DNA of 64,000 nucleotides from an uncultured Candidatus Saccharibacteria bacterium. Its GTDB lineage: Bacteria; Patescibacteriota; Saccharimonadia; Saccharimonadales; CAYLGV01. Where the stretch lies: NCBI GenBank assembly GCA_964394925.1, contig CAYMZG010000004.1, positions 31,208-95,207 on the forward strand, written 5' to 3'. Below, in pieces: positions 3,169 through 37,070 of this stretch (position 1 is the first letter of the stretch; every line of letters starts with the position of its first letter). The notes beneath the pieces were generated by a model. It was not told the origin of the DNA, did not search any database, and saw only the letters and a list, made by a program, of their open reading frames with translations. The translations under genes and the position numbers were made by a program.

Positions 3169-3180
3169 GACATCTGACCA

Positions 3181-3205
3181 CCCTACTATCTTTAGTAGGG
3201 TTTTT
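3181..3205 (+). terminator. Intrinsic-terminator-like hairpin with no upstream plus-strand gene
   Basis: Perfect 8-bp stem CCCTACTA/TAGTAGGG, 4-nt loop, then TTTTT. It sits about 10 nt downstream of the predicted TSS and 18 nt before secE. Confidence 0.45.
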
Positions 3206-3222: not shown

Positions 3223-3651
3223 GTGGCTGAAGCAAAAGAACCCAGCAAGAAAAAACGCCAGCTCAAAAAGCCCCAGACCGTGCGTGAGCGAGCCGAGAAA
3301 GCGAGCATAGAACGCAAGCCTCGACGAATTAAGCAGGCCGGCAGTACCGCCGCTAAGCCATTCAAGGCATTAGGCCGTGTAATCGCTAAAATATTGCGAC
3401 CATTTCGATTCTTGCTATGGCCGTTTAAAACACGACCTGCGCGTTTTATTGGTCGTATTTTGAAGAAAGTTCTCCTCCTAAATTACTTCCGCGAAAGTTG
3501 GCGTGAGCTCAAACTCGTTGAGTGGCCCAATCGCAAACAGACCGCCAAGTTAACATTCGCCGTATTCATGTTCGCTATCTTCTTTAGCGTACTCGTAGGT
3601 GTTGTTGACTATGGTCTCGACAAGATATTTAAGCAACTCATTTTGAAATAG
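3223..3651 (+). CDS. secE: Preprotein translocase subunit SecE with long basic N-terminal extension
   Basis: GTG start after AGGAGA. Lies immediately upstream of nusG. C-terminal WPNRKQT motif plus a single TM (LTFAVFMFAIFFSVLVGVV). The first 90 aa or so are K/R/A-rich. Confidence 0.75.
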   Translation: MAEAKEPSKKKRQLKKPQTVRERAEKASIERKPRRIKQAGSTAAKPFKALGRVIAKILRPFRFLLWPFKTRPARFIGRILKKVLLLNYFRESWRELKLVEWPNRKQTAKLTFAVFMFAIFFSVLVGVVDYGLDKIFKQLILK

Positions 3652-6441: not shown

Positions 6442-7425
6442 ATGGCAGAAGCCAAGAAGAAAACCGCAGCTGAAGAAAAAGCTCAGCTCGAAGCAATCAA
6501 GAATGCTGCAACCGAAGTAGTAGCCGAAGAAGCAACGGAAGTCGTTGAAGAAGCTGCCGCTGAAGAAACTGAAGCAAATACAGCGAAGACGACCGCTAAG
6601 GCCGGCAAGCGAAGCGCAAAAGCTATCGCAGAGGTTGAAGCCAAGCAAGCCAAAGAAGAACGCAAGGCCGCGTCTAAAGAAGCTGACGCCGAGAAAGAAG
6701 CTCAGCCAAAGCCAGTCCAAAAAAGCCGCAGCGTTTTAGAGCGCAAAGGCAAGAAGTTCCGTAAAGTTGCTGAACTCGTTGAAAAAGACAAGCAGTACAA
6801 TCTGAAAGACGCGCTTGACCTTGCCACCAAGACCAATCCTGCTAGATTTGACGCTGCTGTTGAACTGCACGTTCGCCTTGGTGTTGACCCACGCCAGGCT
6901 GATCAGAACCTGCGTGACATTGTGTTGTTACCGGCTGGTACTGGCAAAACAGTTCGAGTAGCAGTTTTTGCTGATCCAGAGGGTACTAAAGTAGCCAAGA
7001 AGGCCGGTGCAGACATTGCTGCCAGCGATGAGTTCCTGCAACAGCTCGACAAGGGTACGATCGACTTTGATATTCTGATCTCAACACCTCAGAACATGGC
7101 CAAGCTCGGTAAGTATGCCCGTTTACTTGGACCGAAGGGTCTGATGCCGAACCCAAAGAGTGGTACGGTTACAACTGATATTGCTAAGGCTGTAGCCGAA
7201 GCGAAGGCTGGTCGTGTTGAGTATCGCGTAGATAGCACCGGCATTGTGCACGTAGCCGTTGGCAAGGTAAGCTTTGGCGCCGATAAGCTCCAGCAAAACG
7301 CCCGAGCCATTCTTGATAGCATTAAAGGCAATAAGCCAAGTACTATCAAGGGCACCTATGTTAAGTCTGTATATGTTACGACCAGCATGGGCCCAAGTAT
7401 CGCGATCGAAACATCCGAAGTATAA
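6442..7425 (+). CDS. rplA: 50S ribosomal protein L1 with ~100-aa A/E/K-rich N-terminal extension
   Basis: ATG after AAAGGAGA. The canonical L1 core begins near [24 protein letters not shown] and continues through VLLPAGTGK and [15 protein letters not shown]. Confidence 0.9.
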
Positions 7426-8286: not shown

Positions 8287-9967
8287 TGTGCTTGGCGCTA
8301 CGGTTCAGCGCCTTGTTTAAGGCATTAACGGTACGCGTAAAGTTACGGATGCCACCCCGATAGGCAATGTAGCGACTTTTCCACGTGGGTTCATATTTAC
8401 CCTTAAAGCGTCGTAAGCCGCTAAAACTATAGAAGCGGTCTCCATTGGCATATACAAACTTAAGTAGGCTATCAATAGCCGTGTTTTCTTGATCATTACT
8501 ATCAAGACCTGACAGCGGACATAACCCCAGATTAAAGCGCTCGAAGCCTGCCTCGGTAGCATAGTCGATAAACTGCATGAGTAGAAAGTCGTTGCTGTTG
8601 GTCAGTGACTGTTTGGTGTGACGAAGTAAATCATAATTTGCCTCGTGTTTATCAAAACTTGGAATTTGGTTAACGAAGGCCTGGATTGTTCCGGCCGCAT
8701 CTCGTAGAACCATGATCGGACACTGCTGAAGATACTCAGCATTAAAGAACCCCATCATAAAGCCACGCTCAGATCGGCCGGGCAAGGTAAGCCAGTCTGC
8801 TGAAACATCATGCAAACGTTGCATGAGGGCGTCATTGTGGGGTGGCTGAAGCAGTTCGGTCGTGTAGCCTTTCTTTTCGAATTTGTTGCGAATCTGACGG
8901 AAGTACTTGCTGCCACGTACCGTTTCCTGATATGGCTTGAGATAGAGGACAGCTTCCTCGCCAATCTTCTGCACGTTATAGCCTTGTTTAATATAGAGAT
9001 CGGTAAAGTGCTCTTCGGTGTGTATGAGGGCTGGAAGCCAATCGTTTACTTTACAGAATTCATGAAACTGTTTTAGGAGGCCCGGGAAATCAGCGTGCTT
9101 GCCGGCCGGATCTCCTGCACACAGAGCAACTCCGTTTTGTACGTGATAGGCCAAAGCCGCTGTATGGGTACGGTTAATAAAATACTGCTTGTCATGTGGC
9201 CACAACTTAAAGAAATCCTCGCTCGTCGCAGGGTGCTTTTCGAGTAAGGTTTTTACCTCATCGCGATTATGGGTTTCATCGGTTAAACGTGCTCGCAACG
9301 GCTGGAAAATTGCCAGAAAGCTATACGCAACCGCACCGATACTGATAATACTCAGAGAATCCATGAAGAGAGCAGCGCGTCGACTATAAGTATGTAATTC
9401 GCCGCTCGTCGTCAGATCAAATTGATCAATGGTTCGGTGGGCGGCTTCCCAAACACTAATTTGCTGATGAAAATCGTGATGGTCCATGAGTATAAAGCCG
9501 AGCACACCATAAGCAAAGGCAACAAGTAGAACCAGTAGTGTGGTACGTAGTGCAAGCGTGAAGCTTCGGACATCACTCTTGACGTTAAACAAGCTCCGGT
9601 AGCGCACCAAGCCGTAAACAACTATGAGCGGCAGTAATAGGTTGCGAATTGGTCCGAACGCTACAAGATGATGGTCGGCCAGTATTACCCCCCGCACAAT
9701 CCCCGTAAAGAGAATGAAACTGTAAACTGGCAGAACCACCAACCAAGCTGTACGCTTGCGACGACGCAAAAGAGTAGCCAGATAAATTAAAGTTATGCCT
9801 TCGAGTACTGGGAAGCTGGTTACAACACCCGTAATGAGTGGCACATCATGCAAAAATAATTGCTCCCGAAGCGAGTCAAGTAGCAAGATAAGGCCATTGG
9901 CTAGAACGCCGAAAGAGACAAGATTCAATATAACTTCGGGTCGAACTAACCGGGAGAAGAACTTCAT
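8276..9967 (-). CDS. MprF-like aminoacyl-phosphatidylglycerol synthase (TM domain + DUF2156-type C-terminal domain)
   Basis: The N-terminal ~230 aa are polytopic. The C-terminal part (ERGFMMGFF, NLGLCPLSG, FYSFSGLRRFKGKYEPTW) matches the LPG-synthase C-terminal domain from memory. Confidence 0.7.
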   Translation of the reverse strand: MKFFSRLVRPEVILNLVSFGVLANGLILLLDSLREQLFLHDVPLITGVVTSFPVLEGITLIYLATLLRRRKRTAWLVVLPVYSFILFTGIVRGVILADHHLVAFGPIRNLLLPLIVVYGLVRYRSLFNVKSDVRSFTLALRTTLLVLLVAFAYGVLGFILMDHHDFHQQISVWEAAHRTIDQFDLTTSGELHTYSRRAALFMDSLSIISIGAVAYSFLAIFQPLRARLTDETHNRDEVKTLLEKHPATSEDFFKLWPHDKQYFINRTHTAALAYHVQNGVALCAGDPAGKHADFPGLLKQFHEFCKVNDWLPALIHTEEHFTDLYIKQGYNVQKIGEEAVLYLKPYQETVRGSKYFRQIRNKFEKKGYTTELLQPPHNDALMQRLHDVSADWLTLPGRSERGFMMGFFNAEYLQQCPIMVLRDAAGTIQAFVNQIPSFDKHEANYDLLRHTKQSLTNSNDFLLMQFIDYATEAGFERFNLGLCPLSGLDSNDQENTAIDSLLKFVYANGDRFYSFSGLRRFKGKYEPTWKSRYIAYRGGIRNFTRTVNALNKALNRSAKHTRH

Positions 9968-10849: not shown

Positions 10850-13177
10850 ATGGGACGCGGAACATTTTTGGTAGTTGAAGGAACTGATGGCTCGGGCAAG
10901 GGCACGCAAGTTGCCAAGTTGGTTGAGCGCCTTGAACACGAAGGCTACGATGTGGCTGCGTTTGATTTTCCACAGTATGAGCAGCCGTCTTCATACTTCG
11001 TACGTGAATATTTAAATGGTAAATACGGCTCGGCCGAAGAAGTTGGCCCGTACACTGGATCGTTATTTTATGCCCTGGATCGTTATCAGGCGGCACCGGC
11101 AATCCGCGAAGCACTCGATGCCGGTAAGGTAGTTATTGCTAACCGTTTTACAGGCAGCAATATGGCACATCAAGGCACCAAGTTCGATGAAAGTGAACAC
11201 CGACGTGGCTACTTTATTTGGCTCGATAATCTCGAGTTTGAAATGCTCAAGATTCCACGCCCCGATCGCTCGATTGTACTCAGAGTACCGGCTGAAATCG
11301 CCCAAAAACTCGTTGATCAAAAAGATGCCCGCTCCTACACCGACAAGAAGCGCGACCTGCATGAAGCAGATTTGAGCCATATGCAGCGTGCAGTTGAGGT
11401 ATACGATGACCTCTGTCATTTGTTCCCCAAAGATTTTGTACGCGTTGACTGTGTCCGCGACGAAAAACTGCTGGAAATCGATACCATACACAAACTACTG
11501 TGGCAGGCAATTGAACCATTATTGCCACCGAAGCCAAAGCAATCAAGTGCTGCCGCTGCTGCCATGGCAACAAAACCAACGACACCCAAGCTTGAAAATC
11601 CATACGTGACCAAAGAGGGCGATCGCTACACCATAACCGCTGCCGGCGAAGCTTTCCTCAAAGACAGCGTGACCAGCGTTGACGGTAATGTGTATGCCTT
11701 TAATGACAATATGAGTCCGCTGACGGTGGCCGCTGCCATGGCGCGCTTGAGCCGCCGCGGCGACGATATGCGCATTACCATTCTTGACGAGTTTGCTGCA
11801 GCCATGGGCAAAGACGAGAAACTCTTACAGCGCGTAATCACCGCCTACGGGGATGATTCGGTGCAACAGCTAGTTGGCCAACACCTAGTAGTGGAGGGCG
11901 CCAGCAACCTACTCACCAAGAAGTTAGAATGGGGGCGCTTGGCGGCCTATCTTGAACAGTCAACGCGCTACATTTACTTTGATCAAAAAGATGCAAACGG
12001 CAAATATAAGTACTACACACCTACCGACTTAGATGCCAAAACAAGGGACAACTACGAAGAAGTTATGAATCGCATCTTCGATCTGTACTCTGAAATGGTC
12101 CGAAAAACCACCGCCTACGTACGCAGCAATTCCGATACACCTAAGGAAGAACAGGATGTAGCCTGGCAAGGTGCCACGCGCGCCCAGGCCTGCGACGCGA
12201 TCAGGCCAGTTCTGCCCGTGGCGACCAAGTCAACGGTCGGCATTTTTGCATCAGGCCAAGCCCTGGAAAGCCTCATTATGCACCTCATGAGCGATGACTT
12301 GCTCGAAGCCCGCGAGGTTGGAGCACAAATCCTTGAACAAGCGCGGAAGGTCATTCCAACGTTTCTGGAACGCGCCGACAAGCCCGACCGCGGCGGCGCC
12401 ACAATGGCATACGTGTCTAACACGCGTCGTTCCGTGAAAGATCTCGCCGAAAAATACCTGCCAGAGAATCATGCCAGCGAGACCGATGCCGTAACACTCA
12501 CGTCGGTTTGGCCACGGAACGAGCTCGATCTCGTACCCGACATGTTGTACGAACACAGCAACCTGCCATTACGTGACTTGCAGGCGGAGGTAGCCACCTG
12601 GCCAGTTGCCCGTCGGATGGACGTCTTTGAAGCATATATGGGCGAACGACTTAACCGCCGCCATCGCCCCGGCCGCGCTCTGGAAAAGGCCCACTACAGC
12701 TGGGATCTCGTGTGTGACTATGGCATCTTTCGTGATCTGCAACGTCACCGAATGGTAGACGACATGAACTGGCAACTACTCACTCCACGCTATGGCTACG
12801 ATGTGCCGCAGCTCGTTGAAGATGCGGGTATGACTGACCTATTTGAGGAATGCTTTGACCTCAGTCTGCAGCTCTTCAGTACAATGCAGGCGGCAGGCTA
12901 TGATCTAGAGGCACAGTACGCAACACTGCTCGGTCATAAGATGCGCTGGAAGGTTACCTACAATGCTCGTGAGGCTTTCCATCTGCATGAACTACGCACC
13001 AGTCCACAAGGTCATCCTGGCTACCGAAAACTTGTACAACAAATGCATGAACGCTTAAGTGAAGTGCACCCAATGATGGCCGAGGCCATGAAGTTTGTAA
13101 ACCAAGGTGAAGACGAAGCCCTAACCAGACTCGCTGCCGAACGCTATACGCAGTTTAAATTAAATCAGTTGAGCTAA
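10850..13177 (+). CDS. thyX: Fusion protein: thymidylate kinase (N-terminal ~210 aa) + flavin-dependent thymidylate synthase ThyX (C-terminal ~530 aa, two Thy1-like halves)
   Basis: Tmk P-loop VVEGTDGSGKGTQ and the DRY-type motif LDRYQ. ThyX-type elements ARLSRRG, EQSTRY, FRDLQRHRMV and LHELRTSPQGHPGYR. Single uninterrupted 775-codon ORF. Confidence 0.85.
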   Translation: MGRGTFLVVEGTDGSGKGTQVAKLVERLEHEGYDVAAFDFPQYEQPSSYFVREYLNGKYGSAEEVGPYTGSLFYALDRYQAAPAIREALDAGKVVIANRFTGSNMAHQGTKFDESEHRRGYFIWLDNLEFEMLKIPRPDRSIVLRVPAEIAQKLVDQKDARSYTDKKRDLHEADLSHMQRAVEVYDDLCHLFPKDFVRVDCVRDEKLLEIDTIHKLLWQAIEPLLPPKPKQSSAAAAAMATKPTTPKLENPYVTKEGDRYTITAAGEAFLKDSVTSVDGNVYAFNDNMSPLTVAAAMARLSRRGDDMRITILDEFAAAMGKDEKLLQRVITAYGDDSVQQLVGQHLVVEGASNLLTKKLEWGRLAAYLEQSTRYIYFDQKDANGKYKYYTPTDLDAKTRDNYEEVMNRIFDLYSEMVRKTTAYVRSNSDTPKEEQDVAWQGATRAQACDAIRPVLPVATKSTVGIFASGQALESLIMHLMSDDLLEAREVGAQILEQARKVIPTFLERADKPDRGGATMAYVSNTRRSVKDLAEKYLPENHASETDAVTLTSVWPRNELDLVPDMLYEHSNLPLRDLQAEVATWPVARRMDVFEAYMGERLNRRHRPGRALEKAHYSWDLVCDYGIFRDLQRHRMVDDMNWQLLTPRYGYDVPQLVEDAGMTDLFEECFDLSLQLFSTMQAAGYDLEAQYATLLGHKMRWKVTYNAREAFHLHELRTSPQGHPGYRKLVQQMHERLSEVHPMMAEAMKFVNQGEDEALTRLAAERYTQFKLNQLS

Positions 13178-17275: not shown

Positions 17276-17303
17276 AAAACTGCTCGCACTTGAGCAGTTT
17301 TTT
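17276..17303 (+). terminator. Intrinsic terminator
   Basis: Stem AAAACTGCTC/GAGCAGTTTT, loop GCACTTG, T-run. Confidence 0.7.
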
Positions 17304-19699: not shown

Positions 19700-21058
19700 A
19701 TGGAACCAAAGGGGGTCGCTCTACCACCACAAAATACCGATGCCGAAGCGAGTTTGCTCGGCGCGATTTTGATTGATACCGACGCCTTGGTACGTATTGC
19801 CGACAAAATCGCAGCTGATGATTTTTACGATGAGAAACACCGCTACATTTATGAAGCGATTATTCAATTATATGAAAAGCACAGCCCGATTGATGTTTTA
19901 ACCCTTGCAGACCAGTTGAAAGCCAATGGCACCCTCGATGCAATTGGCGGTTCATCATACCTTGCTGAGCTGACAAACTTTGTGCCGACTGCCAGCCATG
20001 TCGAACAATACGCCGACATTGTGGCCCAAAAGTCATTGCGCCGAAAACTTATTAAGGCTGCTCAAGACATCACGGGCCTTGGGTATAACGAAAGTACCGC
20101 CTTACAAGAATTAATTGAAGAGGCTGAGGCGCGCTTGTTTGAGGTAAGCCAAAAGCACATCAAGCAAGACATCACCAGCTTAGAAACCATCTTGAGTGAA
20201 AGTTTTGACCGTCTTGATGAACTCCACAAAGACAAAGGCAAGATCCGCGGTGTGCCGACCGGCTATAAGGATATGGACAATATTTTGGCCGGGTTGCAGC
20301 GCTCAGATCTGTTCATCCTGGCTGCAAGACCGTCGATGGGCAAAACCGCCCTGGCGTTGAACCTCGCCCACAACGTGTCCGTACAAGCCAAACAACCGGT
20401 GCTTATTTTTAGCCTCGAAATGAGCAAAGAACAGCTAGTGGACCGTATGCTTGCTATGGAATCAGGTGTGGATGCCTGGGCGCTCAGGACAGGCAACCTC
20501 ACGGACTCTGACTTTGAGAAAATTGGCCAGGCCATGGGCACGCTGAGCGAGGCCGAGATATACATTGATGATACGCCTGGTATTACCGTCAGTGAACTGC
20601 GCACCAAGGCGCGCCGCGAAGCCCACCTACATGATCTCGGCCTGATTATTGTTGACTATTTGCAGCTGATGAGTGGCGGTAATAAGTTTGGCGGTGAAGG
20701 TAACCGTGTGCAGGAAATTAGTGAAATATCCCGTGGTCTCAAGGGCGTTGCACGTGAGCTGAACGTGCCGCTCATTGCGCTCAGTCAGCTCAGTCGTTCG
20801 GTTGAAAGTCGAAGCCCGCAGATTCCACAGCTGGCCGACCTTCGTGAATCCGGTTCGATCGAGCAGGATGCCGACGTGGTAGCCTTCATTTACCGTGAAG
20901 ACTATTACAATCCCGAAACAGATCGCCGTAATGTCACTGATATTTTCATTAAGAAACACCGTAATGGCCCCACCGGTGCCGTTGAACTTTACTTCGACAA
21001 AGACAAGCAGCGCTTCCGAAGCCTGGACACCAAACACTCGCAGCCCTTCGAATCGTAA
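19700..21058 (+). CDS. dnaB: Replicative DNA helicase DnaB
   Basis: PPQNTDAEASLLGAIL N-terminus, Walker A ARPSMGKTA, IIVDYLQLM, SQLSR. Confidence 0.95.
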   Translation: MEPKGVALPPQNTDAEASLLGAILIDTDALVRIADKIAADDFYDEKHRYIYEAIIQLYEKHSPIDVLTLADQLKANGTLDAIGGSSYLAELTNFVPTASHVEQYADIVAQKSLRRKLIKAAQDITGLGYNESTALQELIEEAEARLFEVSQKHIKQDITSLETILSESFDRLDELHKDKGKIRGVPTGYKDMDNILAGLQRSDLFILAARPSMGKTALALNLAHNVSVQAKQPVLIFSLEMSKEQLVDRMLAMESGVDAWALRTGNLTDSDFEKIGQAMGTLSEAEIYIDDTPGITVSELRTKARREAHLHDLGLIIVDYLQLMSGGNKFGGEGNRVQEISEISRGLKGVARELNVPLIALSQLSRSVESRSPQIPQLADLRESGSIEQDADVVAFIYREDYYNPETDRRNVTDIFIKKHRNGPTGAVELYFDKDKQRFRSLDTKHSQPFES

Positions 21059-27818: not shown

Positions 27819-28964
27819 TTATGGCAGGTTTGCTCGTCTTTTCAACAAGGCATGGTTATAAACTTCTAGTAACTGCTGTCCGACCACATGGATGTCGTAG
27901 TGCTGCACCGCTTTGGTCTGCCAACGCAACGCAGCATGGCGGGCCCGAGCGGAGACAATAAAATGCAGAAGCTGCTTGGCGAAGCTCTCTGTTTCGTTAA
28001 GGGTAATAAGCTGATCGGCCCGTTCACCGAGAACCGTTTCGTAGCCAACATTACTGCCACCGAGTACAACTTTTGCACCCGCTGCCATGGCCTCAACCAA
28101 GACAATACCAAAACTCTCACCACCCGTACTCGGGAAAACCGCAACATCGGCACTGGCCAGATAGTTCGGTTTTTCGGCTTCTGGTACATAGCCAATAAAG
28201 TGCACGATGTGTCCCAGGTGATTCTGATGCACGTACGCTTCGAGCTTGGCTTGGAGTGGACCCTTGCCGCCTATGAGGACCCGGGTGTTATCGAGCTTGT
28301 GTGCAGCATGCAGCTTTTCAATGGCTTGCAAGAAGTACATACAGCCCTTGCGCTCAACCAAACGACCGAGAAAAACTATGTTCAATTTATCGTCATCATA
28401 CTTCGCAAGTTGTCGACCTTTGCTGAATCGCCCGACATCAACAGCGTTTGGTATGACTACAGACGCGAGCTTGAATGACTCTTTCAAAAATATAGCGGCT
28501 GGCTTCGAAACACTCACCACGGCGTCGAACCGCTGGCGACTACTGCGAAGTGCCATGCCAAGCAAGCGGGTGGCTTTCTTCTCGAGGCCCGAAAAAGGAA
28601 TGATGTGGAAGGTGCCGACTACGGCCGTAGAGTTCGGGGCGGCTTTGATGATTTTGGCTGCCATAAGTGGGCTGTAGGGCATCTGTACGTGCAGCACATC
28701 AAAGTTTTCACGATCTAATAAGGTCTTGATGCGTTTGGCAGAAGCGGGTAGTGGGGTGCTCATACGGTTTTGGTTAAAATGCACTTGCAAGTTACGAGAC
28801 AGGCTGTGAATATGCTTGAGGTCTTTTCGCTCAGTTTGCCCAACCAGGTAATGCACTTCGTAGCCAAGGTGTTGATAGTAGGCGCCGAGCGTCGTCACGT
28901 ACTGCTGCACCCCGTCGGTTTTGTCGAGGCTGTCGTCGAGCACGAAGCCGATTTTAAGCGGCAT
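27819..28964 (-). CDS. Family-4 (GT-B) glycosyltransferase
   Basis: MPLKIGFVLDD N-terminus and the E-x7-E region GGESFGIVLVEAMAAG. Start set at the MPLKIG methionine; the ORF is open further upstream. Confidence 0.8.
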   Translation of the reverse strand: MPLKIGFVLDDSLDKTDGVQQYVTTLGAYYQHLGYEVHYLVGQTERKDLKHIHSLSRNLQVHFNQNRMSTPLPASAKRIKTLLDRENFDVLHVQMPYSPLMAAKIIKAAPNSTAVVGTFHIIPFSGLEKKATRLLGMALRSSRQRFDAVVSVSKPAAIFLKESFKLASVVIPNAVDVGRFSKGRQLAKYDDDKLNIVFLGRLVERKGCMYFLQAIEKLHAAHKLDNTRVLIGGKGPLQAKLEAYVHQNHLGHIVHFIGYVPEAEKPNYLASADVAVFPSTGGESFGIVLVEAMAAGAKVVLGGSNVGYETVLGERADQLITLNETESFAKQLLHFIVSARARHAALRWQTKAVQHYDIHVVGQQLLEVYNHALLKRRANLP

Positions 28965-32324: not shown

Positions 32325-32415
32325 TCTGCCTATGATTATAGCTGAACTGCTGTGTTTTTGGTTAGAAAAATGCTTATGGATATTATTGGTTTCGCGCTGC
32401 GGATTTTTAGAGATG

Positions 32416-32444
32416 TTGAGAAATTACCACTTCTGCGTTAAAAT
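32416..32444 (+). promoter_or_regulatory. Putative tRNA-Gln promoter
   Basis: TTGAGA, 17-nt spacer, TAAAAT, about 48 nt upstream of the tRNA 5' end. Confidence 0.35.
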
Positions 32445-32492
32445 CTATCTGTTTAACAGGCTAGTAATTCTAGCTTTGTAGTAACAGTATAT

Positions 32493-32567
32493 TAGGGCGT
32501 GGCCAAGTGGTAAGGCACCAGGTTTTGGTCCTGGCATTCGGGGGTTCGAATCCCTCCGCCCTAGCCA
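32493..32567 (+). tRNA. tRNA-Gln (anticodon UUG), CCA encoded
   Basis: Cloverleaf read by hand: acceptor TAGGGCG/CGCCCTA with the U1:A72 pair typical of tRNA-Gln, D-arm GCCAAGTGGTAAGGCA, anticodon arm CCAGG-TTTTGGT-CCTGG, T-arm GGGGG-TTCGAAT-CCCTC, then GCCA. Aligns position by position with E. coli tRNA-Gln. Confidence 0.92.
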
Positions 32568-32610
32568 AAAAGGTTTGGCAGTGAGCATCGCTTGCTGGCA
32601 AACCTTTTTT
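32568..32610 (+). terminator. Intrinsic terminator after tRNA-Gln
   Basis: Stem AAAGGTTTGGCAG/CTGGCAAACCTTT (one mismatch) followed by TTTTTT. Confidence 0.65.
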
Positions 32611-32693
32611 ACTTGGCTGAAGGATTATATGAACGAGGTTCGGCGTAGCGGCGGCTTTGCCGTCCGCGGAGAAGCCCACCTTTGGTAGGCGCT

Positions 32694-32764
32694 ATCCCTC
32701 CGTCCTAGCCATAAGCATTTTGACCTCTGTTCGCAGAGGTTTTTGTTTTCGGTCGTGCTTGCAA
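32694..32764 (+). repeat. Cassette-array repeat copy A (carries tRNA 3'-end duplicate instead of the 5' box)
   Basis: ATCCCTCCGTCCTAGCCA (32694-32711) matches tRNA positions 32550-32567 at 17/18. It continues TAAGCATTTTGACCTCTG-TTCG-CAGAGGTTTTTGTTTT ... GCTTGCAA. Confidence 0.8.
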
Positions 32765-32809
32765 TCCGAGACTTACTACAAGACAATATGTCTATAAAGG
32801 AGTAAAGAA

Positions 32810-33121
32810 ATGGAACGCAAAGATATAGCATCTTCATACGGGCCGCGTGAGCCGCGACACGACAGAGTGTCTTTTGATGGAAGTGGTCGAGAAGCAGAAC
32901 TTCTCGTTACTGGATTACGAGCACTTGCAGCACAAATTGCGATTCGTGATGTAACCACGGAGGCTAGCAATGGCTATTTTTATCCACACGGTTCACGACA
33001 CCAAGGAGACGGTGTTCCTCTTGCTGGAGAAATAGCAACTCTGCTTGCACAGATTGAGAATCCAAATTTTGTTGAAGCCGAGACGGCATCCGAAACTCCA
33101 AAACCTGTAGTCAGTAGCTAG
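32810..33121 (+). CDS. Cassette 1: hypothetical protein (103 aa)
   Basis: ATG after AAGGAG. No motif recognised. Confidence 0.5.
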   Translation: MERKDIASSYGPREPRHDRVSFDGSGREAELLVTGLRALAAQIAIRDVTTEASNGYFYPHGSRHQGDGVPLAGEIATLLAQIENPNFVEAETASETPKPVVSS

Positions 33122-33146
33122 TCTAAGTTTTAACGATAACCTTAAA

Positions 33147-33234
33147 GTTCCGAAGTACATCAACCAAAGGTAGCCATAAGCACTTTAACCTCTGTTATGT
33201 CAGAGGTTTTTGTTTTTTGATATAATGATTATAT
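33147..33234 (+). repeat. Cassette-array repeat copy B
   Basis: GTTCCGAAGTACATCAACCAAAGGTAGCCATAAGCACTTTAACCTCTG-TTATGT-CAGAGGTTTTTGTTTTTT, then TGaTATAAT (extended -10) inside the palindrome ATATAATGATTATAT. Confidence 0.85.
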
Positions 33235-33484
33235 GGCTGAGGTAATCACACCAAATAGAACCGATATGCTTCTTGGAGTAATTAACGAGACACCTCCAGA
33301 AGAGCTGACTTCAAGCTATTTACTTGAAACGATGAAGGGCTATGAGGCGTTCTCGAAGTTTACACGGCGTGCTGTTATTGAATCATTGGCGCATCTAGAG
33401 ACTAATGGCCGTGTTGCGTTTGACCCTAAATTACACATCACCGACATTGGCTCGCAACGCCTCCATGACGTTGGGCTAATTTAA
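33233..33484 (+). CDS. Cassette 2: small protein (83 aa), possible winged-helix
   Basis: The ATG lies 6 nt after TATAAT (leaderless-looking). The FSKFTRRAVIESLAHLETNGRV segment looks like a wHTH recognition helix plus wing. This is inference only. Confidence 0.45.
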   Translation: MAEVITPNRTDMLLGVINETPPEELTSSYLLETMKGYEAFSKFTRRAVIESLAHLETNGRVAFDPKLHITDIGSQRLHDVGLI

Positions 33485-33499
33485 CGCATTAGCTCTCAA

Positions 33500-33590
33500 G
33501 TTCCGAAGTACATCGACCAAACCTAGCCAAGCATAAGCGGGATGAAGACTTCTTCGGAAGTCTTTTGTTTTCGTATACAATAAATGCATG
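33500..33590 (+). repeat. Cassette-array repeat copy C (divergent hairpin stem, same architecture)
   Basis: GTTCCGAAGTACATCGACCAAACCTAGCCAAGCATAAGC, then hairpin AAGACTTC-TTCG-GAAGTCTT plus T-run, then TACAAT and the ATGCAT palindrome. Confidence 0.75.
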
Positions 33591-34085
33591 TACAGTAAAG
33601 ATCTTGAGGGTAATCAGTATATAATATCTGACGATCAACTTTCTTGGCGACCTTCCGCTTACGGCATAGTAATTATGGATAATAAGATCCTTTTGGTGAG
33701 AGAAAATGGCAAATACCATCTTCCTGGAGGTGGCTTGGACTTTGGAGAAGACCCTAAAAACGCGGTGATACGTGAAGTAAGAGAAGAGACCGGCATAACA
33801 ACGGAGGATCCCATAATAATTGATGTAGTTAGCTCATTCTTTAGCTACGGTGCTAATGATAACCCTCCTAACTTGCAACACGTGAACTCACTACTTATCT
33901 ACTATTCCTGTAAATTTGTGAGCGAAGACGCAGGAGATATCAAATTAGATGAATATGAGAGAGAGGCTGGCTTATCACATGAATGGGTAGAAGTTAGTCA
34001 ACTTAATGAAATAACTGTCGGAACTACTGTTGACTGGCGCCCTCTCATAGCCCAGGTAGTTCCGAAGTACATCAACCAAAGGTAG
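33588..34085 (+). CDS. Cassette 3: NUDIX hydrolase
   Basis: Nudix box GGGLDFGEDPKNAVIREVREETGI. The ATG lies 6 nt after TACAAT. The last 8 codons plus the stop are encoded by repeat copy D. Confidence 0.8.
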   Translation: MYSKDLEGNQYIISDDQLSWRPSAYGIVIMDNKILLVRENGKYHLPGGGLDFGEDPKNAVIREVREETGITTEDPIIIDVVSSFFSYGANDNPPNLQHVNSLLIYYSCKFVSEDAGDIKLDEYEREAGLSHEWVEVSQLNEITVGTTVDWRPLIAQVVPKYINQR

Positions 34086-34142
34086 TCATAAGCACTTTAA
34101 CCTCTGTCCGCAGAGGTTTTTGTTTTACGCATATGCTTGCAA
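34059..34142 (+). repeat. Cassette-array repeat copy D
   Basis: GTTCCGAAGTACATCAACCAAAGGTAGTCATAAGCACTTTAACCTCTG-TCCG-CAGAGGTTTTTGTTTT-AC-GCATATGCTTGCAA. Confidence 0.85.
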
Positions 34143-34561
34143 TATATCCAACGCGGGACTTTAATAGTGTTATGCCAAGGAAAAGATGGGACAACCCTAC
34201 TACTATCAGCTTGTTTGAAGTTCATGATGAATTTCCATATGGCAGGCCACCCGTGATACACACCGAAGACATGACTCCAGAAGCGGTCAATGCTCGTGTC
34301 GCAAACAGAATGAACCAGCTACTAATGGAGCAGGTTGTAAAAACATTTGATGCCTATAGGGAAGATCCTGACACTCCACAAACCGTACTCCAGTCTCTAG
34401 CTGCTGGGGAGAATCTCTCTCTGAGCCAGATTGCAGCAATGCTTCAGGTCGTTCCGAGCACTGTTGAGCAAGATTTAGGTGTATTATGCGAAGTAGGTTG
34501 GGTGGCTGTAGATGACGATGGTATTATTCCAAAATATTCAATGATTGCCACTGAACGTTAG
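34133..34561 (+). CDS. Cassette 4: hypothetical protein with C-terminal winged-helix-like segment
   Basis: The ORF opens at the repeat-borne ATG (34133). The alternative start at 34172 lies 6 nt after TTGCAA-17-TTTAAT. The LSLSQIAAMLQVVPSTVEQDLGVLCEVGWV segment looks HTH-like. Confidence 0.5.
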   Translation: MLAIYPTRDFNSVMPRKRWDNPTTISLFEVHDEFPYGRPPVIHTEDMTPEAVNARVANRMNQLLMEQVVKTFDAYREDPDTPQTVLQSLAAGENLSLSQIAAMLQVVPSTVEQDLGVLCEVGWVAVDDDGIIPKYSMIATER

Positions 34562-34565
34562 AAAG

Positions 34566-34648
34566 GTTCCGAAGTACATCAACCAAAGGTAGCCATAAGC
34601 ACTTTGACCTCTGTTCGCAGAGGTTTTTGTTTTTGCATATGCTTGCAA
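34566..34648 (+). repeat. Cassette-array repeat copy E
   Basis: GTTCCGAAGTACATCAACCAAAGGTAGCCATAAGCACTTTGACCTCTG-TTCG-CAGAGGTTTTTGTTTTT-GCATATGCTTGCAA. Confidence 0.85.
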
Positions 34649-34677
34649 CCGAAAAACCAAAGGTATTAACTAGTCGT

Positions 34678-35085
34678 ATGAGTACAACAACCATCGAGAC
34701 AACCAAGACAGAAAAAGAAACACCCATCGAGAAACTTCAACAGGTTCGAAGAGCTGGGCTATTCATTGGTTCAGTTTGGGCATACGGACTTAAGGATGGG
34801 GATACATTCACCAAGGCTAAAGCGCTATGGACACCTACGGGCTACAATGTTGATAGTGGAAGACTTGCGGTATCAATTAATGAATGGGGGCCCGTACCAA
34901 TAAACGGCGCAGAGCAAATGGTTGTGGGCACTGGGGAGTTGGAGCGTGGGCAACAGCTACTCATGGACATTTTTGAAACTATGGCAAATAGGGGCATCAT
35001 TCAAATGGTAGCCGCGCCAGAGGTGCCGCCAACATATGAAGATAACTTGACTGCGATGCTTGTTGAAAGAGACGCTACTATCTAA
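34678..35085 (+). CDS. Cassette 5: hypothetical protein with NEWGPVP motif
   Basis: The ATG at 34678 lies 6 nt after TTGCAA-17-TTAACT. The ORF is also open from the repeat-borne ATG at 34639. Confidence 0.5.
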   Translation: MSTTTIETTKTEKETPIEKLQQVRRAGLFIGSVWAYGLKDGDTFTKAKALWTPTGYNVDSGRLAVSINEWGPVPINGAEQMVVGTGELERGQQLLMDIFETMANRGIIQMVAAPEVPPTYEDNLTAMLVERDATI

Positions 35086-35108
35086 CACTGACCTCGGTGT
35101 TCATACTA

Positions 35109-35181
35109 GTCCGATGGGGACGTAGCAATAAGCGTTTTGACCTCTGTTCGCATAGGTCTTTGTTTTTGCTATTGCTTGTAG
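35109..35181 (+). repeat. Cassette-array repeat copy F (degenerate)
   Basis: GTCCGATGGGGACGTAGCAATAAGCGTTTTGACCTCTG-TTCG-CATAGGTCTTTGTTTTTGCTATTGCTTGTAG. The hairpin has one mismatch. Confidence 0.65.
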
Positions 35182-35203
35182 TTTAGTAGGCAATACTTAT
35201 AAT
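35176..35203 (+). promoter_or_regulatory. Putative promoter of cassette 6
   Basis: TTGTAG (aligned with TTGCAA of the other copies), 16-nt spacer, TATAAT (35198-35203). Confidence 0.4.
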
Positions 35204-35221
35204 TATGCGCATGGAGAAAAT

Positions 35222-35629
35222 ATGACATCTGAGAAAACCCCACAGACTAAAGAACCATTTTCGGTAGAACGAATGGATCTACGTCAAACCGCACGTGTAT
35301 TGGGCGCAATGACCGGATATTTAGAGGCAGAGGCGACAGTGCGTGCTGCACATGGCATGAAAGAGGACGGTCCGCTCTTAGAACAAGTACGTGCTGAATA
35401 TGACCGCATTACACGATTAGTCGAGGACTCCGAGCCAGGCATTCGAGAAGACTTCTTTGCCGAACACCAGCCAAGATATGACGTACTAGATGGTATCTAC
35501 GACTGTGCGAGTGAAACATGCCCGCGCGTCGGCTACGAATCTCCCGAGTCCCGAAAAGAACATCATCGTATGTGGGGATTCGACAATCCGCTCATCGATA
35601 TACGGCAAACTCAATCACAAACTGAATAA
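35222..35629 (+). CDS. Cassette 6: hypothetical protein (135 aa)
   Basis: ATG after GGAGAAAA. No motif recognised. Confidence 0.5.
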   Translation: MTSEKTPQTKEPFSVERMDLRQTARVLGAMTGYLEAEATVRAAHGMKEDGPLLEQVRAEYDRITRLVEDSEPGIREDFFAEHQPRYDVLDGIYDCASETCPRVGYESPESRKEHHRMWGFDNPLIDIRQTQSQTE

Positions 35630-35672
35630 TTCCAGCGTAATACTGACCAAAGGTAACCAAAACAGCATATGC
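35629..35672 (+). repeat. Cassette-array repeat vestige G (5' box and GCATATGC junction, hairpin missing)
   Basis: ATTCCAGCGTAATACTGACCAAAGGTAACCAAAACAGCATATGC aligns with the 5' box (..ACCAAAGGTARCCA) and with the junction palindrome. Confidence 0.45.
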
Positions 35673-35956
35673 CAAACTACGAGGAACCCTATCTACAGAT
35701 TGAACATGATATGAGCGAAAATAGCCTGAAGCAACTGAGCTTCACAAAGACGCTCGGCTATGTGGGGGTTGGATTATGCGTGATAAGTTCAGTTGGTGAA
35801 ATGATCGTAGGTGCTACCGATAAGATTGCCAGCAATGCCATACCGCTCGCACTGAGTGCAGCGGTTATTTATGCATCTAATCGAAGAATGAGAGATCATG
35901 AGCAGAGGCTAGAGGAAATACAGGTTCTGTCTGAATACGAGAAGGAGCTTGGCTAA
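35669..35956 (+). CDS. Small membrane protein (95 aa)
   Basis: The start ATG is the one inside GCATATGC. Two hydrophobic segments. Confidence 0.45.
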   Translation: MPNYEEPYLQIEHDMSENSLKQLSFTKTLGYVGVGLCVISSVGEMIVGATDKIASNAIPLALSAAVIYASNRRMRDHEQRLEEIQVLSEYEKELG

Positions 35957-36032: not shown

Positions 36033-37070
36033 ATGGAAGTTCGCCACCTTATTCATCAAGTGACAGAGTCGGTAAAAGTCGGGCTTGAGTTAGGTCGAGA
36101 GACCACGCCACACATCGATGCACAGTTCATGGCAATTGCCAACCGTGAAGCCTCTAAGCCGGGTGCCTTCTTTGGTGTTGTTGGTGAAGAACAATTGCAG
36201 CCACCGAACCGACCGGACGCTATTAATCATAACCTGACGCTACTGCCTCCCAATGCCCTAAACAACCGAGAGATTAATGAGGCACTCAGCCTTGTAGATA
36301 TTATGCTTGGCACAGAACAAACGGCCCAAATCACGGAAAAGTTTGCTGAAGCAGCTGACGAGGTTGGCATTTTTGACAGGTTACAGCATGACCACAAGCG
36401 ACAGGGTGCAAAGTTAATTGTATTGAGTAATCACTTGGAACTACCAGACCAGGGCTTCACGATGGGCTTTTTGCACAAGGCGGCCGCCGAGCACGGTGTA
36501 GAACGACTTGAGAATTATCTGACTGCCGTAATTGGTCGTGTGGTTGGTTACTTTACGCTTGGCGAAACAAACGTTATTGATGGCATTTTACGCAGAGCTG
36601 GCAGCATTCTAAAGACATTTCCACGAGGGGGTAGTGAAGCACTCACCGAAGATGAGGAATTTGCCTTGGCCCTTTATCGGGGATACTGCAATCACAAAAC
36701 AAAAGAAGCGTTTTCTGATCTGATGAGCACCCAAGATGGTCGTATAGTTACCATTGCTCCAAGCGGCGAGCAGGACCATTTTGATGCCGAAGAAGGCACC
36801 GTAAAAATGCGTGCCTTTGGCGACGGAACCTGCAACATGATCATAGATGCCTGCAAAAGGGGCGCCATGGTTTTGCCGGTATTTGTGGACTACAGCACAA
36901 CCTCGAGTATTGTGGAGTTTCTTGAGCCACGTACCACAACGAGCACAGAAGATTGTCATGCCATCGGCCAGGAATTAGCCGCCGTTGGTACCGATGCTCG
37001 TGCCATCAAAACCAAAGAGTTACCCGAAGAAAAGCGCTATCAAGCCAGCATTAGCTATAGCAGCAACTAG
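36033..37070 (+). CDS. PlsC-like (LPLAT-family) acyltransferase candidate
   Basis: SNHLELPD (NHx4D), TFPRGGSE (FPEGT-like) and VLPVFVDY (VPV-like) occur in the expected order. RBS AGGAGAG. Confidence 0.5.
   Translation: MEVRHLIHQVTESVKVGLELGRETTPHIDAQFMAIANREASKPGAFFGVVGEEQLQPPNRPDAINHNLTLLPPNALNNREINEALSLVDIMLGTEQTAQITEKFAEAADEVGIFDRLQHDHKRQGAKLIVLSNHLELPDQGFTMGFLHKAAAEHGVERLENYLTAVIGRVVGYFTLGETNVIDGILRRAGSILKTFPRGGSEALTEDEEFALALYRGYCNHKTKEAFSDLMSTQDGRIVTIAPSGEQDHFDAEEGTVKMRAFGDGTCNMIIDACKRGAMVLPVFVDYSTTSSIVEFLEPRTTTSTEDCHAIGQELAAVGTDARAIKTKELPEEKRYQASISYSSN

Follow-up and report, generated by a model that had tools for sequence, protein, structure and literature searches.

Six copies of a repeated unit, designated A to F, lie between 32.7 and 35.2 kb of a 64-kb stretch of Candidatus Saccharimonadales chromosome (the whole of this stretch is called the window below), and each of the six carries a short hairpin with a run of T residues behind it. 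The hairpin and T-run are probably a Rho-independent (intrinsic) terminator within a composite intergenic terminator-promoter module, a reading that draws on the anatomy of the unit and on its variation in related genomes. The module would consist, in order, of a 5′ box that some copies lack, the final 6 nt of tRNA-Gln (TAGCCA), a trailer of ~11 nt, the hairpin, the U-run and a sigma-70-like promoter. It would terminate one small gene while its promoter-like part restarts transcription for the next, and the gene array in which the copies lie would be transcribed as a string of single-gene transcripts, several of them probably leaderless.

Anatomy of the repeat unit

Repeat search and an nhmmer profile placed the starts of the six units at 32682, 33147, 33500, 34059, 34566 and 35099, and the profile found no further copy in the whole 64 kb. 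The pattern ACCTCTG-N4-CAGAGGT matches at 32723, 34100 and 34607 and, with one mismatch, at 35140, giving four matches where 0.02 are expected. An earlier sequence-only reading of this DNA had assigned the stem ACCTCTG/CAGAGGT to copies A, D, E and F, which is correct for A, D and E; in copy F the 3′ strand is CATAGGT, leaving a C.T mismatch in the stem (tail CTTTGTTTT). The loops are as that reading listed them, TTATGT in copy B, TCCG in D and TTCG in A, C, E and F. It had further singled out copy C for a completely different stem that shares the TTCG loop, the T-run and the distance from the 5′ box. The stem, AAGACTTC/GAAGTCTT, does differ from the family stem at 8 of 8 positions, and the stem-loop AAGACTTC-TTCG-GAAGTCTT occurs once in the window, at 33545-33564, with its T-run present; the TTTTGTTTT run that had been given for it includes the final two T of the stem. 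The spacing is not the same: the stem of copy C begins 45 nt from the start of the box and those of B, D and E 41 nt from it, the extra 4 nt being inserted between TAGCC and ATAAGC.

Alignment resolves the unit into a box of about 24 nt, TAGCCA, TAAGCA(C/T)TTT(A/G), an 8-bp stem closing a 4-6-nt loop, TTTTGTTTT and a promoter-like region. In the 12 copies examined, stems are 8-9 bp and loops 4-6 nt long, with 5-8 T within the 9 nt after the stem, and the hairpin is part of the minimum-free-energy fold in all copies except one (11/12). A terminator scan detects copies A-E. The consensus fold contains the hairpin and a weak 5-pair extension that joins the AAGCA of the trailer to the U-run, with the box unstructured. 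The hairpins of B-F start 18-66 nt past a co-oriented stop codon, which in copy D lies inside the box, and copy A is located downstream of a tRNA gene. The textbook intrinsic terminator lies past a stop codon and has a short GC-containing stem, a small loop and a U-run directly behind it. Other genes of the window end in a like hairpin and T-run, for example at 17276-17301, 8294-8312 and 3180-3201. Of the two roles suggested beforehand, the terminator is thus the best reading on hairpin anatomy, U-run and position, and a recombination structure received no positive support in the data.

Behind the U-run, copies A, D, E and F have GCTTGCAA or GCTTGTAG, containing the -35-like hexamer TTGCAA or TTGTAG, and then a 15-17-nt spacer and a -10-like hexamer, while in copies B and C a -10 (TGATATAAT, TATACAAT) lies directly behind the U-run; all of these promoter hexamers are consensus matches only. 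An ATG lies 6-8 nt past the -10 in copies B, C, D and E (at 33233, 33588, 34172 and 34678) and in copies L007_1, L010_1 and L016_1 from the related loci described below, which suggests that the array genes behind B, C, D and E are expressed from leaderless mRNAs. Copies A and F instead carry Shine-Dalgarno sequences. The spans from -10 to ATG are 33221-33235, 33576-33590, 34160-34174 and 34664-34680 in the window, ~9535-9522 in L007 and ~9988-10005 in L016. For the fourth array gene, the in-frame ATG at 34172 appears a more likely start than the long open-reading frame (ORF) call from 34133, since the latter would start within the repeat, ahead of its own -35; the predicted product shortens from 142 to 129 aa.

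The 22-nt 5′ box GTTCCGAAGTACATC[A/G]ACCAAA is present only in copies B-E and has a sharp left edge; at its position, copy A has a fragment of the tRNA-Gln 3′ end and copy F unrelated sequence. The box of copy E is 85% and 80% identical to those of two relatives, in which the coding flanks are 77% identical. Three accounts of the box were tried and rejected. As a decayed tRNA T-arm, it aligns to the tRNA body no better than chance (3297/5000 shuffles; no better than 66%), and only TAGCCA and the trailer are demonstrably common to box copies and the tRNA end. As a coding remnant (VPKYINQR*), it shows substitutions at the three codon positions of roughly 5:4:2 by hand count, which is not significant, and copy D is the only one in which it continues the frame of the upstream ORF with no stop between them. 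As a structured RNA or antiterminator, it stays unfolded in single-sequence and consensus folds and has no Rfam match, the only Rfam hits at gathering score being the tRNA and an L10 leader, with nothing credible at E<=10 over 32400-35300. A search of public collections with the box returned one match in genome_contigs and two in metagenome_contigs, all at chance level and without a hairpin, and scans of viral_contigs with the box and with trailer plus stem returned 11 loci, none credible under the covariance model described below.

The conservation of the box and its constant place just 5′ of the hairpin would also fit a functional RNA, such as a 3′ untranslated region-derived small RNA or a regulatory switch in which the box acts as an antiterminator by pairing to the stem, or binds a protein or RNA target, and the CAAAGGT of the box resembles the 3′ stem strand CAGAGGT. 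This is very unlikely, as, besides the folding and Rfam results, copies A, F, L007_1, L010_1 and L016_1 keep the hairpin without the box and the supposed antiterminator match is lost in copy C.

Stem variation in relatives and the origin of copy C

The flanking carboxypeptidase, at 88-89% and 79% protein identity, and a conserved 345-aa gene led to three relatives. In L007 (GCA_964383395.1), the box copy after the NUDIX gene has the hairpin ACCTCCG-TTCA-CGGAGGT, a T-A to C-G double change compared to the window. In L010 (Logan SRR29476932), a third stem unrelated to the other two, AATACCAC-AGATA-GTGGTATT, stands behind the box of copy 2, with a T-run after it, and copy 3 has the imperfect hairpin GCCTCCG-TTAT-CTGAGGT. 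MAFFT failed to register the three stem types, and a covariance model built from type-1 copies (those with the family stem) was used; even so, L010 copy 2 aligned only locally. The model recovers ten copies, six from the window, three from L010 and one from L007; other Saccharimonadales loci, about 120 kb in all, and the viral matches contain none. In the model alignment, 95.9% of stem cells pair compared to 87.0 +/- 1.7% after shuffling, with none of 500 shuffles reaching the observed value, and controls in which the partners were slid by 1-3 columns pair at 23-60%. Five of the eight stem pairs have changed on both sides, and the loops vary freely. These pair counts are supportive rather than decisive, because the sequences share ancestry and the structure itself guided the alignment.

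The three unrelated stems in one slot, the double change and the level of pairing are consistent with the earlier proposal that the hairpin is a selected structure and not a passive remnant. The check proposed with it, pairing in copies added from relatives, bears this out in part: a compensatory pair was found and pairing exceeds that of the shuffles, but the independent events are few. If the repeats were passive leftovers of tandem duplication, with the hairpin unselected and the copy C palindrome a coincidence, the near-identity of the five type-1 copies within the window (96-97%) could be due to recency alone, which could conserve the stems. That account is nevertheless extremely unlikely, given that the genes between the repeats are not paralogous, that three different stems and a compensatory pair occupy one position across several genomes, and that L016 keeps a hairpin of the copy C type though the adjacent protein is only 67% identical.

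This C-type hairpin and the -10 region downstream of it recur, by alignment, upstream of NUDIX genes in L007, L016 and L035. The L007 form is GAAGACTTC-TTCG-AAAGTCTT, with a pseudo tRNA 3′ end before it. The L016 form, GGAGACTTC-ATCG-GAAGTCTTT, comes from a more distant member of the Saccharimonadales, next to the NUDIX gene whose product is 67% identical to that of the window, and its locus contains no array and no tRNA within 16.6 kb. From L035 to L042, the 5′ strand is degraded but the 3′ strand and the -10 persist. Between the window and L007, identity of the NUDIX proteins is only 35%. Because the C-type hairpin and -10 recur at NUDIX genes elsewhere, copy C, judged from its sequence, is a chimera and not a mutated type-1 copy, with the family box on the left, a separate, older NUDIX-linked terminator-promoter unit on the right, and the seam between TAGCC and ATGAAGAC. 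The compensatory, in-place replacement of the stem that had been proposed for copy C is therefore not what is seen, and the swap is explained by recombination; that two lineages each keep a hairpin at this position does support selection for one there. The hairpin alone, as an ordinary terminator, is unsurprising.

Several observations weigh against the terminator reading or limit the case for selection. A structure-fitted alignment biases pair counts towards structure, and stem conservation among the type-1 copies of the window is uninformative, leaving a case of one compensatory pair and two alternative stems. Maintenance of pairing is not absolute: L010 copy 3 has one mismatch in the 7-bp core stem (2/8 modelled pairs are non-standard), copy F has its one mismatch, L007_1 has a C.A closing pair and L035 has lost the 5′ strand. 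A terminator also gives no account of the ~30-nt box, unfolded in predictions yet highly conserved, and the identity of trailer, hairpin and loop between genomes is greater than a terminator requires.

The tRNA-Gln gene array and its turnover

The gene array begins just 3′ of tRNA-Gln and includes seven small co-oriented genes (Table 1). Only the NUDIX protein has a significant family match, those of the other array proteins in Pfam, PHROGs, NCBIfam and PADLOC being unconvincing. All-against-all BLASTP found no paralogs among them, and tandem gene duplication was rejected on this ground. L007 has the same flanks as the window and a different array (NUDIX', 79 aa, 353 aa, 603 aa), and all-against-all BLASTP of window, L007 and L010 found no array gene in common except the 345-aa gene, the flanks being syntenic. 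On these comparisons, the array is a gene-content hotspot, with wholly different genes between tRNA-Gln and the acyltransferase-like 345-aa gene in three genomes whose flanks are 88-89% identical in protein. Repeat copies are present at most gene junctions of the proximal array and at none of the distal junctions beside the conserved gene.

The L010 contig begins inside the tRNA-Gln T-arm (GGGGGTTCGAATCCCTCCGCCCTAGCCA|TAAGCACTTTGACCTCTGTTCGCAGAGGTTTTTG, i.e. ...CCCTAGCCA|TAAGCACTTTGACCTCTGTTCGCAGAGGTTTTTGTTTTTGGTTATGCTTGCG) and has a type-1 hairpin directly 3′ of the tRNA-Gln end, which could belong either to a functional tRNA or to a long pseudo-copy. The repeat family probably arose from the trailer and terminator of tRNA-Gln, because the 3′ half of the module matches the sequence after the tRNA-Gln 3′ end in L010. 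From trailer through hairpin and U-run to the -35, window 34590-34648 and L010 22-80 are identical at 55 of 58 positions, compared to 77-78% in flanking coding DNA, and some variants are common to the copies of one genome only (TAC/CAA for the window; TAT or AAT with CAG for L010), which together indicate recombination or gene conversion among copies. Recombination between repeat copies, similar to that described for the promoter-early stem-loops (PeSLs) of T4-type phages, would be the most economical mechanism of gene turnover, and copy C would be a product of such joining. Donor DNA may have come through natural competence, which Saccharibacteria possess (PMC10633639).

Short-read contigs of three relatives end inside tRNA-Gln (at position 1 of L008, L009 and L010), with L008, the companion contig of L010, ending inside the anticodon arm, and contigs from the window's own population break inside repeat copies (L001-L003 ends). 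Arrays anchored at a tRNA are probably under-represented in metagenome-assembled genomes, because the repeats or duplicated tRNA ends break assemblies.

Intergenic, multi-copy, hairpin-bearing repeats of ~70-95 nt that are more alike within than across genomes might be small non-autonomous mobile elements of the miniature inverted-repeat transposable element (MITE), repetitive extragenic palindrome (REP) or Correia type, spread into intergenic regions with an incidental hairpin. We regard this as scarcely credible: the copies all fall within a single 3-kb array, where they share one orientation, and neither the remaining 61 kb nor about 120 kb of the relatives' flanks contains any. Terminal inverted repeats and target-site duplications are absent from the unit, and in L010 its right half runs on from the tRNA-Gln 3′ end without a break.

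The repeats could also be attachment or recombination sites of a site-specific capture of cassettes at the tRNA-Gln 3′ end, the box, the hairpin or both being read by a recombinase encoded elsewhere and termination being secondary. The tRNA gene at the start of the array fits such sites, as do the partial tRNA 3′ ends that copy A and L007_1 hold past an intact tRNA in the manner of attL/attR scars, and the box copies have exactly TAGCCA and the trailer in common with the tRNA end. So do the sharp left edge of the repeat, the apparent replacement of the native NUDIX ORF end by the copy D box, the complete turnover of genes between close relatives with repeats at the junctions, and the conservation of box and trailer beyond the needs of a terminator; tycheposons are a precedent for islands studded with partial tRNAs. 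We nevertheless consider it unlikely. Searches of about 50 ORFs in the window and of the flanks in L007 and L010 (roughly 10 kb) turned up no integrase, transposase or other recombinase family, and the conserved gene at the array end is acyltransferase-like. The box lacks both an inverted-repeat core enclosing a spacer and the GTTRRRY/RYYYAAC cores of integrons, a promoter-like signal accompanies every cassette, the box resembles the tRNA body no more than chance would give, and matches to the box motif in viral, genome and metagenome collections were all at chance level. A wider proposal, that the locus is an undescribed integrase-independent or trans-acting gene-capture platform of Patescibacteria, in which single-gene units with tRNA-Gln-derived terminator-promoter modules are inserted, swapped and lost and box plus TAGCCA is the recombination site, is doubtful; if true, it would make the locus the chromosomal equivalent, in an ultrasmall and naturally competent epibiont, of integrons or of PeSL shuffling in phages.

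From 32568 to 32711, the window contains, after the intact tRNA-Gln, its own, different terminator, a spacer, the 18-nt pseudo tRNA 3′ end and then copy A. The tRNA-Gln layout of L007 (9744-9577, - strand) matches that of the window, and the spacers of ~80-125 nt do not align between the two. This order of tRNA-Gln, spacer and pseudo 3′ end resembles the attL/attR-type scar that an old insertion at the 3′ end of a tRNA would leave. The NUDIX ORF (33588-34085) extends 27 nt into the copy D box and takes its stop from the box TAG at 34083-85 (tail VPKYINQR*); NUDIX orthologues align over only 96-97% of the length of the window NUDIX protein. From these alignments, the native 3′ end of the gene seems to have given way to the copy D repeat.

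Table 1 Coordinates of the tRNA-Gln gene, the repeat copies and the array genes in the window
Feature	Position	Strand	Description
tRNA-Gln (anticodon UUG)	32493..32567	+	CCA encoded; ARAGORN; Rfam tRNA 63.6 bits
Present tRNA-Gln terminator	32568..32611	+	AAAAGGTTTGGCAG...CTGGCAAACCTTTTTT; read from sequence; unrelated to the repeat hairpins
Copy A	32694..32787	+	Pseudo tRNA-Gln 3′ end ATCCCTCCGTCCTAGCCA (32694-32711; 17/18 identical to 32550-32567), trailer TAAGCATTTT
Copy A hairpin	32722-32741	+	GACCTCTG-TTCG-CAGAGGTT; U-run up to 32749
Copy A promoter-like part	32759-64; 32782-87	+	-35-like TTGCAA; -10-like GACAAT
Copy B	33147..33226	+	5′ box and TAGCCA 33147-33176
Copy B hairpin	33187-33208	+	AACCTCTG-TTATGT-CAGAGGTT, then U-run
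Copy B promoter-like part	33221-26	+	TG-extended -10 TATAAT; ATG of 83-aa gene 6 nt on (33233)
Copy C	33500..33581	+	5′ box 33500-33529 with one A->G change, CC for GG, 4-nt insertion
Copy C hairpin	33544-33565	+	GAAGACTTC-TTCG-GAAGTCTTT; U-run up to 33571
Copy C promoter-like part	33576-81	+	-10-like TACAAT; ATG of NUDIX gene 6 nt on (33588)
Copy D	34059..34165	+	Box 34059-34088
Copy D hairpin	34099-34118	+	AACCTCTG-TCCG-CAGAGGTT, then U-run
Copy D promoter-like part	34137-42; 34160-65	+	-35-like TTGCAA; 17-nt spacer; -10-like TTTAAT; in-frame ATG 34172
Copy E	34566..34671	+	Box 34566-34595
Copy E hairpin	34606-34625	+	GACCTCTG-TTCG-CAGAGGTT, then U-run
Copy E promoter-like part	34643-48; 34664-71	+	-35-like TTGCAA; -10-like TATTAA/TTAACT; ATG 34678
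Copy F	35123..35203	+	No box; homology from TAGCAA 35123-28
Copy F hairpin	35139-35158	+	GACCTCTG-TTCG-CATAGGTC, one C.T mismatch; U-run
Copy F promoter-like part	35176-81; 35198-35203	+	-35-like TTGTAG; -10 TATAAT; next gene (35222) with GGAG Shine-Dalgarno
Degenerate seventh box	35630..35668	+	TTCCAGCGTAATACTGACCAAAGGTAACCAAAAC; no hairpin; between 135-aa and 95-aa genes; from alignment and sequence
Seven small co-oriented genes between repeats	32810..35956	+	103 aa; 83 aa; NUDIX 165 aa; weak winged helix-turn-helix 142/129 aa; 135 aa; 135 aa; 95 aa
345-aa conserved gene, first past the array	36033..37070	+	NHxxxxD motif; predicted GPAT/PatA-like fold

The 345-aa gene is the sole array-side gene common to the window and its relatives. 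Its product has no match in Pfam, NCBIfam or PHROGs, is conserved across Saccharimonadales with NHxxxxD invariant, and has three tandem paralogs in L013. The AlphaFold model (mean predicted local distance difference test score, pLDDT, 81.5) best matches a glycerol-3-phosphate acyltransferase (GPAT; 8ia1) and PatA (5f2z), and the protein is probably an unannotated acyltransferase family by this predicted fold. That it might be a hidden recombinase was ruled out by the motif and the fold match.

The window as a whole is bacterial chromosome, encoding an L10 leader, SecE, NusG, L11, L1, DnaX, DnaB, CysS, ATP synthase and cytochrome bd, and its placement in Candidatus Saccharimonadales (TM7, Patescibacteria) comes from named homologues of the flanking D-Ala-D-Ala carboxypeptidase. 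A phage origin was rejected, as megablast of 30-38 kb against 50,697 phage records gave no match and PHROGs gave only generic NUDIX and helix-turn-helix matches, and so was a defence island, for which PADLOC and NCBIfam returned only weak or generic matches. Away from the array, one 775-aa ORF (10850-13177) joins an N-terminal thymidylate kinase domain to the flavin-dependent thymidylate synthase ThyX, a Tmk-ThyX fusion. DnaB, 452 aa long in the window (19700-21058), contains a LAGLIDADG intein in the two closest relatives and reaches about 800 aa there (L007 20823-21260+, L008 11277+). The longest L1 ORF (6403-7425) starts at a GTG and encodes 340 aa with the L1 domain from residue 143, and that of SecE (3223-3651) also starts at a GTG and encodes 142 aa with the domain at residues 87-140; these long N-terminal extensions may be mis-set starts. 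A Lys/Glu/Ala-rich repeat at 6675-6712 has further copies at 28922 and 39125.

Comparison with known systems

Taken together, the element would be an intrinsic terminator that forms part of a composite module of PeSL type, and the array around it a hypervariable set of ORFans anchored at a tRNA in a Patescibacterium. The reduced genome of this member of the Saccharimonadales would thus keep a compact array of unrelated, mostly ORFan genes, each packaged with a standard terminator-promoter spacer. In the literature searched, no description of such an array in Patescibacteria was found, the arrangement being known for T4-type phages. If recombination between modules drives gene gain and loss, it would offer a concrete, testable route of accessory-gene turnover where classical mobile elements are largely lacking, and the modules are candidate native terminator and promoter parts, possibly leaderless, for Saccharibacteria genetics.

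The repeat hairpins are similar to Rho-independent terminators in their 8-9 bp stem, their 4-6 nt loop (often UUCG), the immediate U-run, their location just past co-oriented stops and the retention of pairing with sequence variation. They differ in that the terminator here sits in a repeated ~85-nt unit with strongly conserved sequence outside the stem, in the box, trailer and loop.

In integrons, too, unrelated small genes form an array in a single orientation, and behind each cassette the attC site is a hairpin repeat with structure better conserved than sequence. The present array has no intI, no attI, no R''/L''-L'/R' architecture and no GTTRRRY core; its repeat starts GTTCCGA, its only palindrome is a short perfect stem with a U-run, and its genes have promoter-like signals of their own. 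Islands anchored at a tRNA with partial-tRNA repeats, such as the Prochlorococcus tycheposons (bioRxiv 10.1101/2020.12.28.424599), share a variable region directly 3′ of a tRNA with a duplicated partial 3′ end inside it, which is present here as a direct repeat in copy A (17/18 nt) and L007_1, copies B-E having only TAGCCA. Unlike those islands, the array has no detected tyrosine recombinase or other mobility gene and is built of single small-gene units of 350-560 bp; most of its repeats have no more of the tRNA than the last 6 nt.

PeSLs are conserved terminator-promoter motifs upstream of ORFans in the hyperplastic regions of T4-type phages, and recombination between them shuffles genes (PMC2839356). 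As in that system (Arbiol et al. 2010, PMC2839356; Comeau et al. 2014, PMC4122927), a repeated motif of a putative stem-loop terminator and a candidate sigma-70-like promoter lies between ORFans, and the gene content of close relatives differs at motif-bounded positions. PeSLs are elements of T4-type phages, whereas the present modules lie on a Saccharimonadales chromosome with no phage match; PeSLs occur in about 50 dispersed copies and the modules in a single array. The PeSL stem-loop is mostly within or overlapping the promoter, whereas here it precedes the promoter-like part, with an extra 5′ box and sequence continuity with the tRNA-Gln 3′ end and trailer. Mini-circles and promoter and terminator assays belong to the PeSLs, of which the present modules would be a functional analogue.

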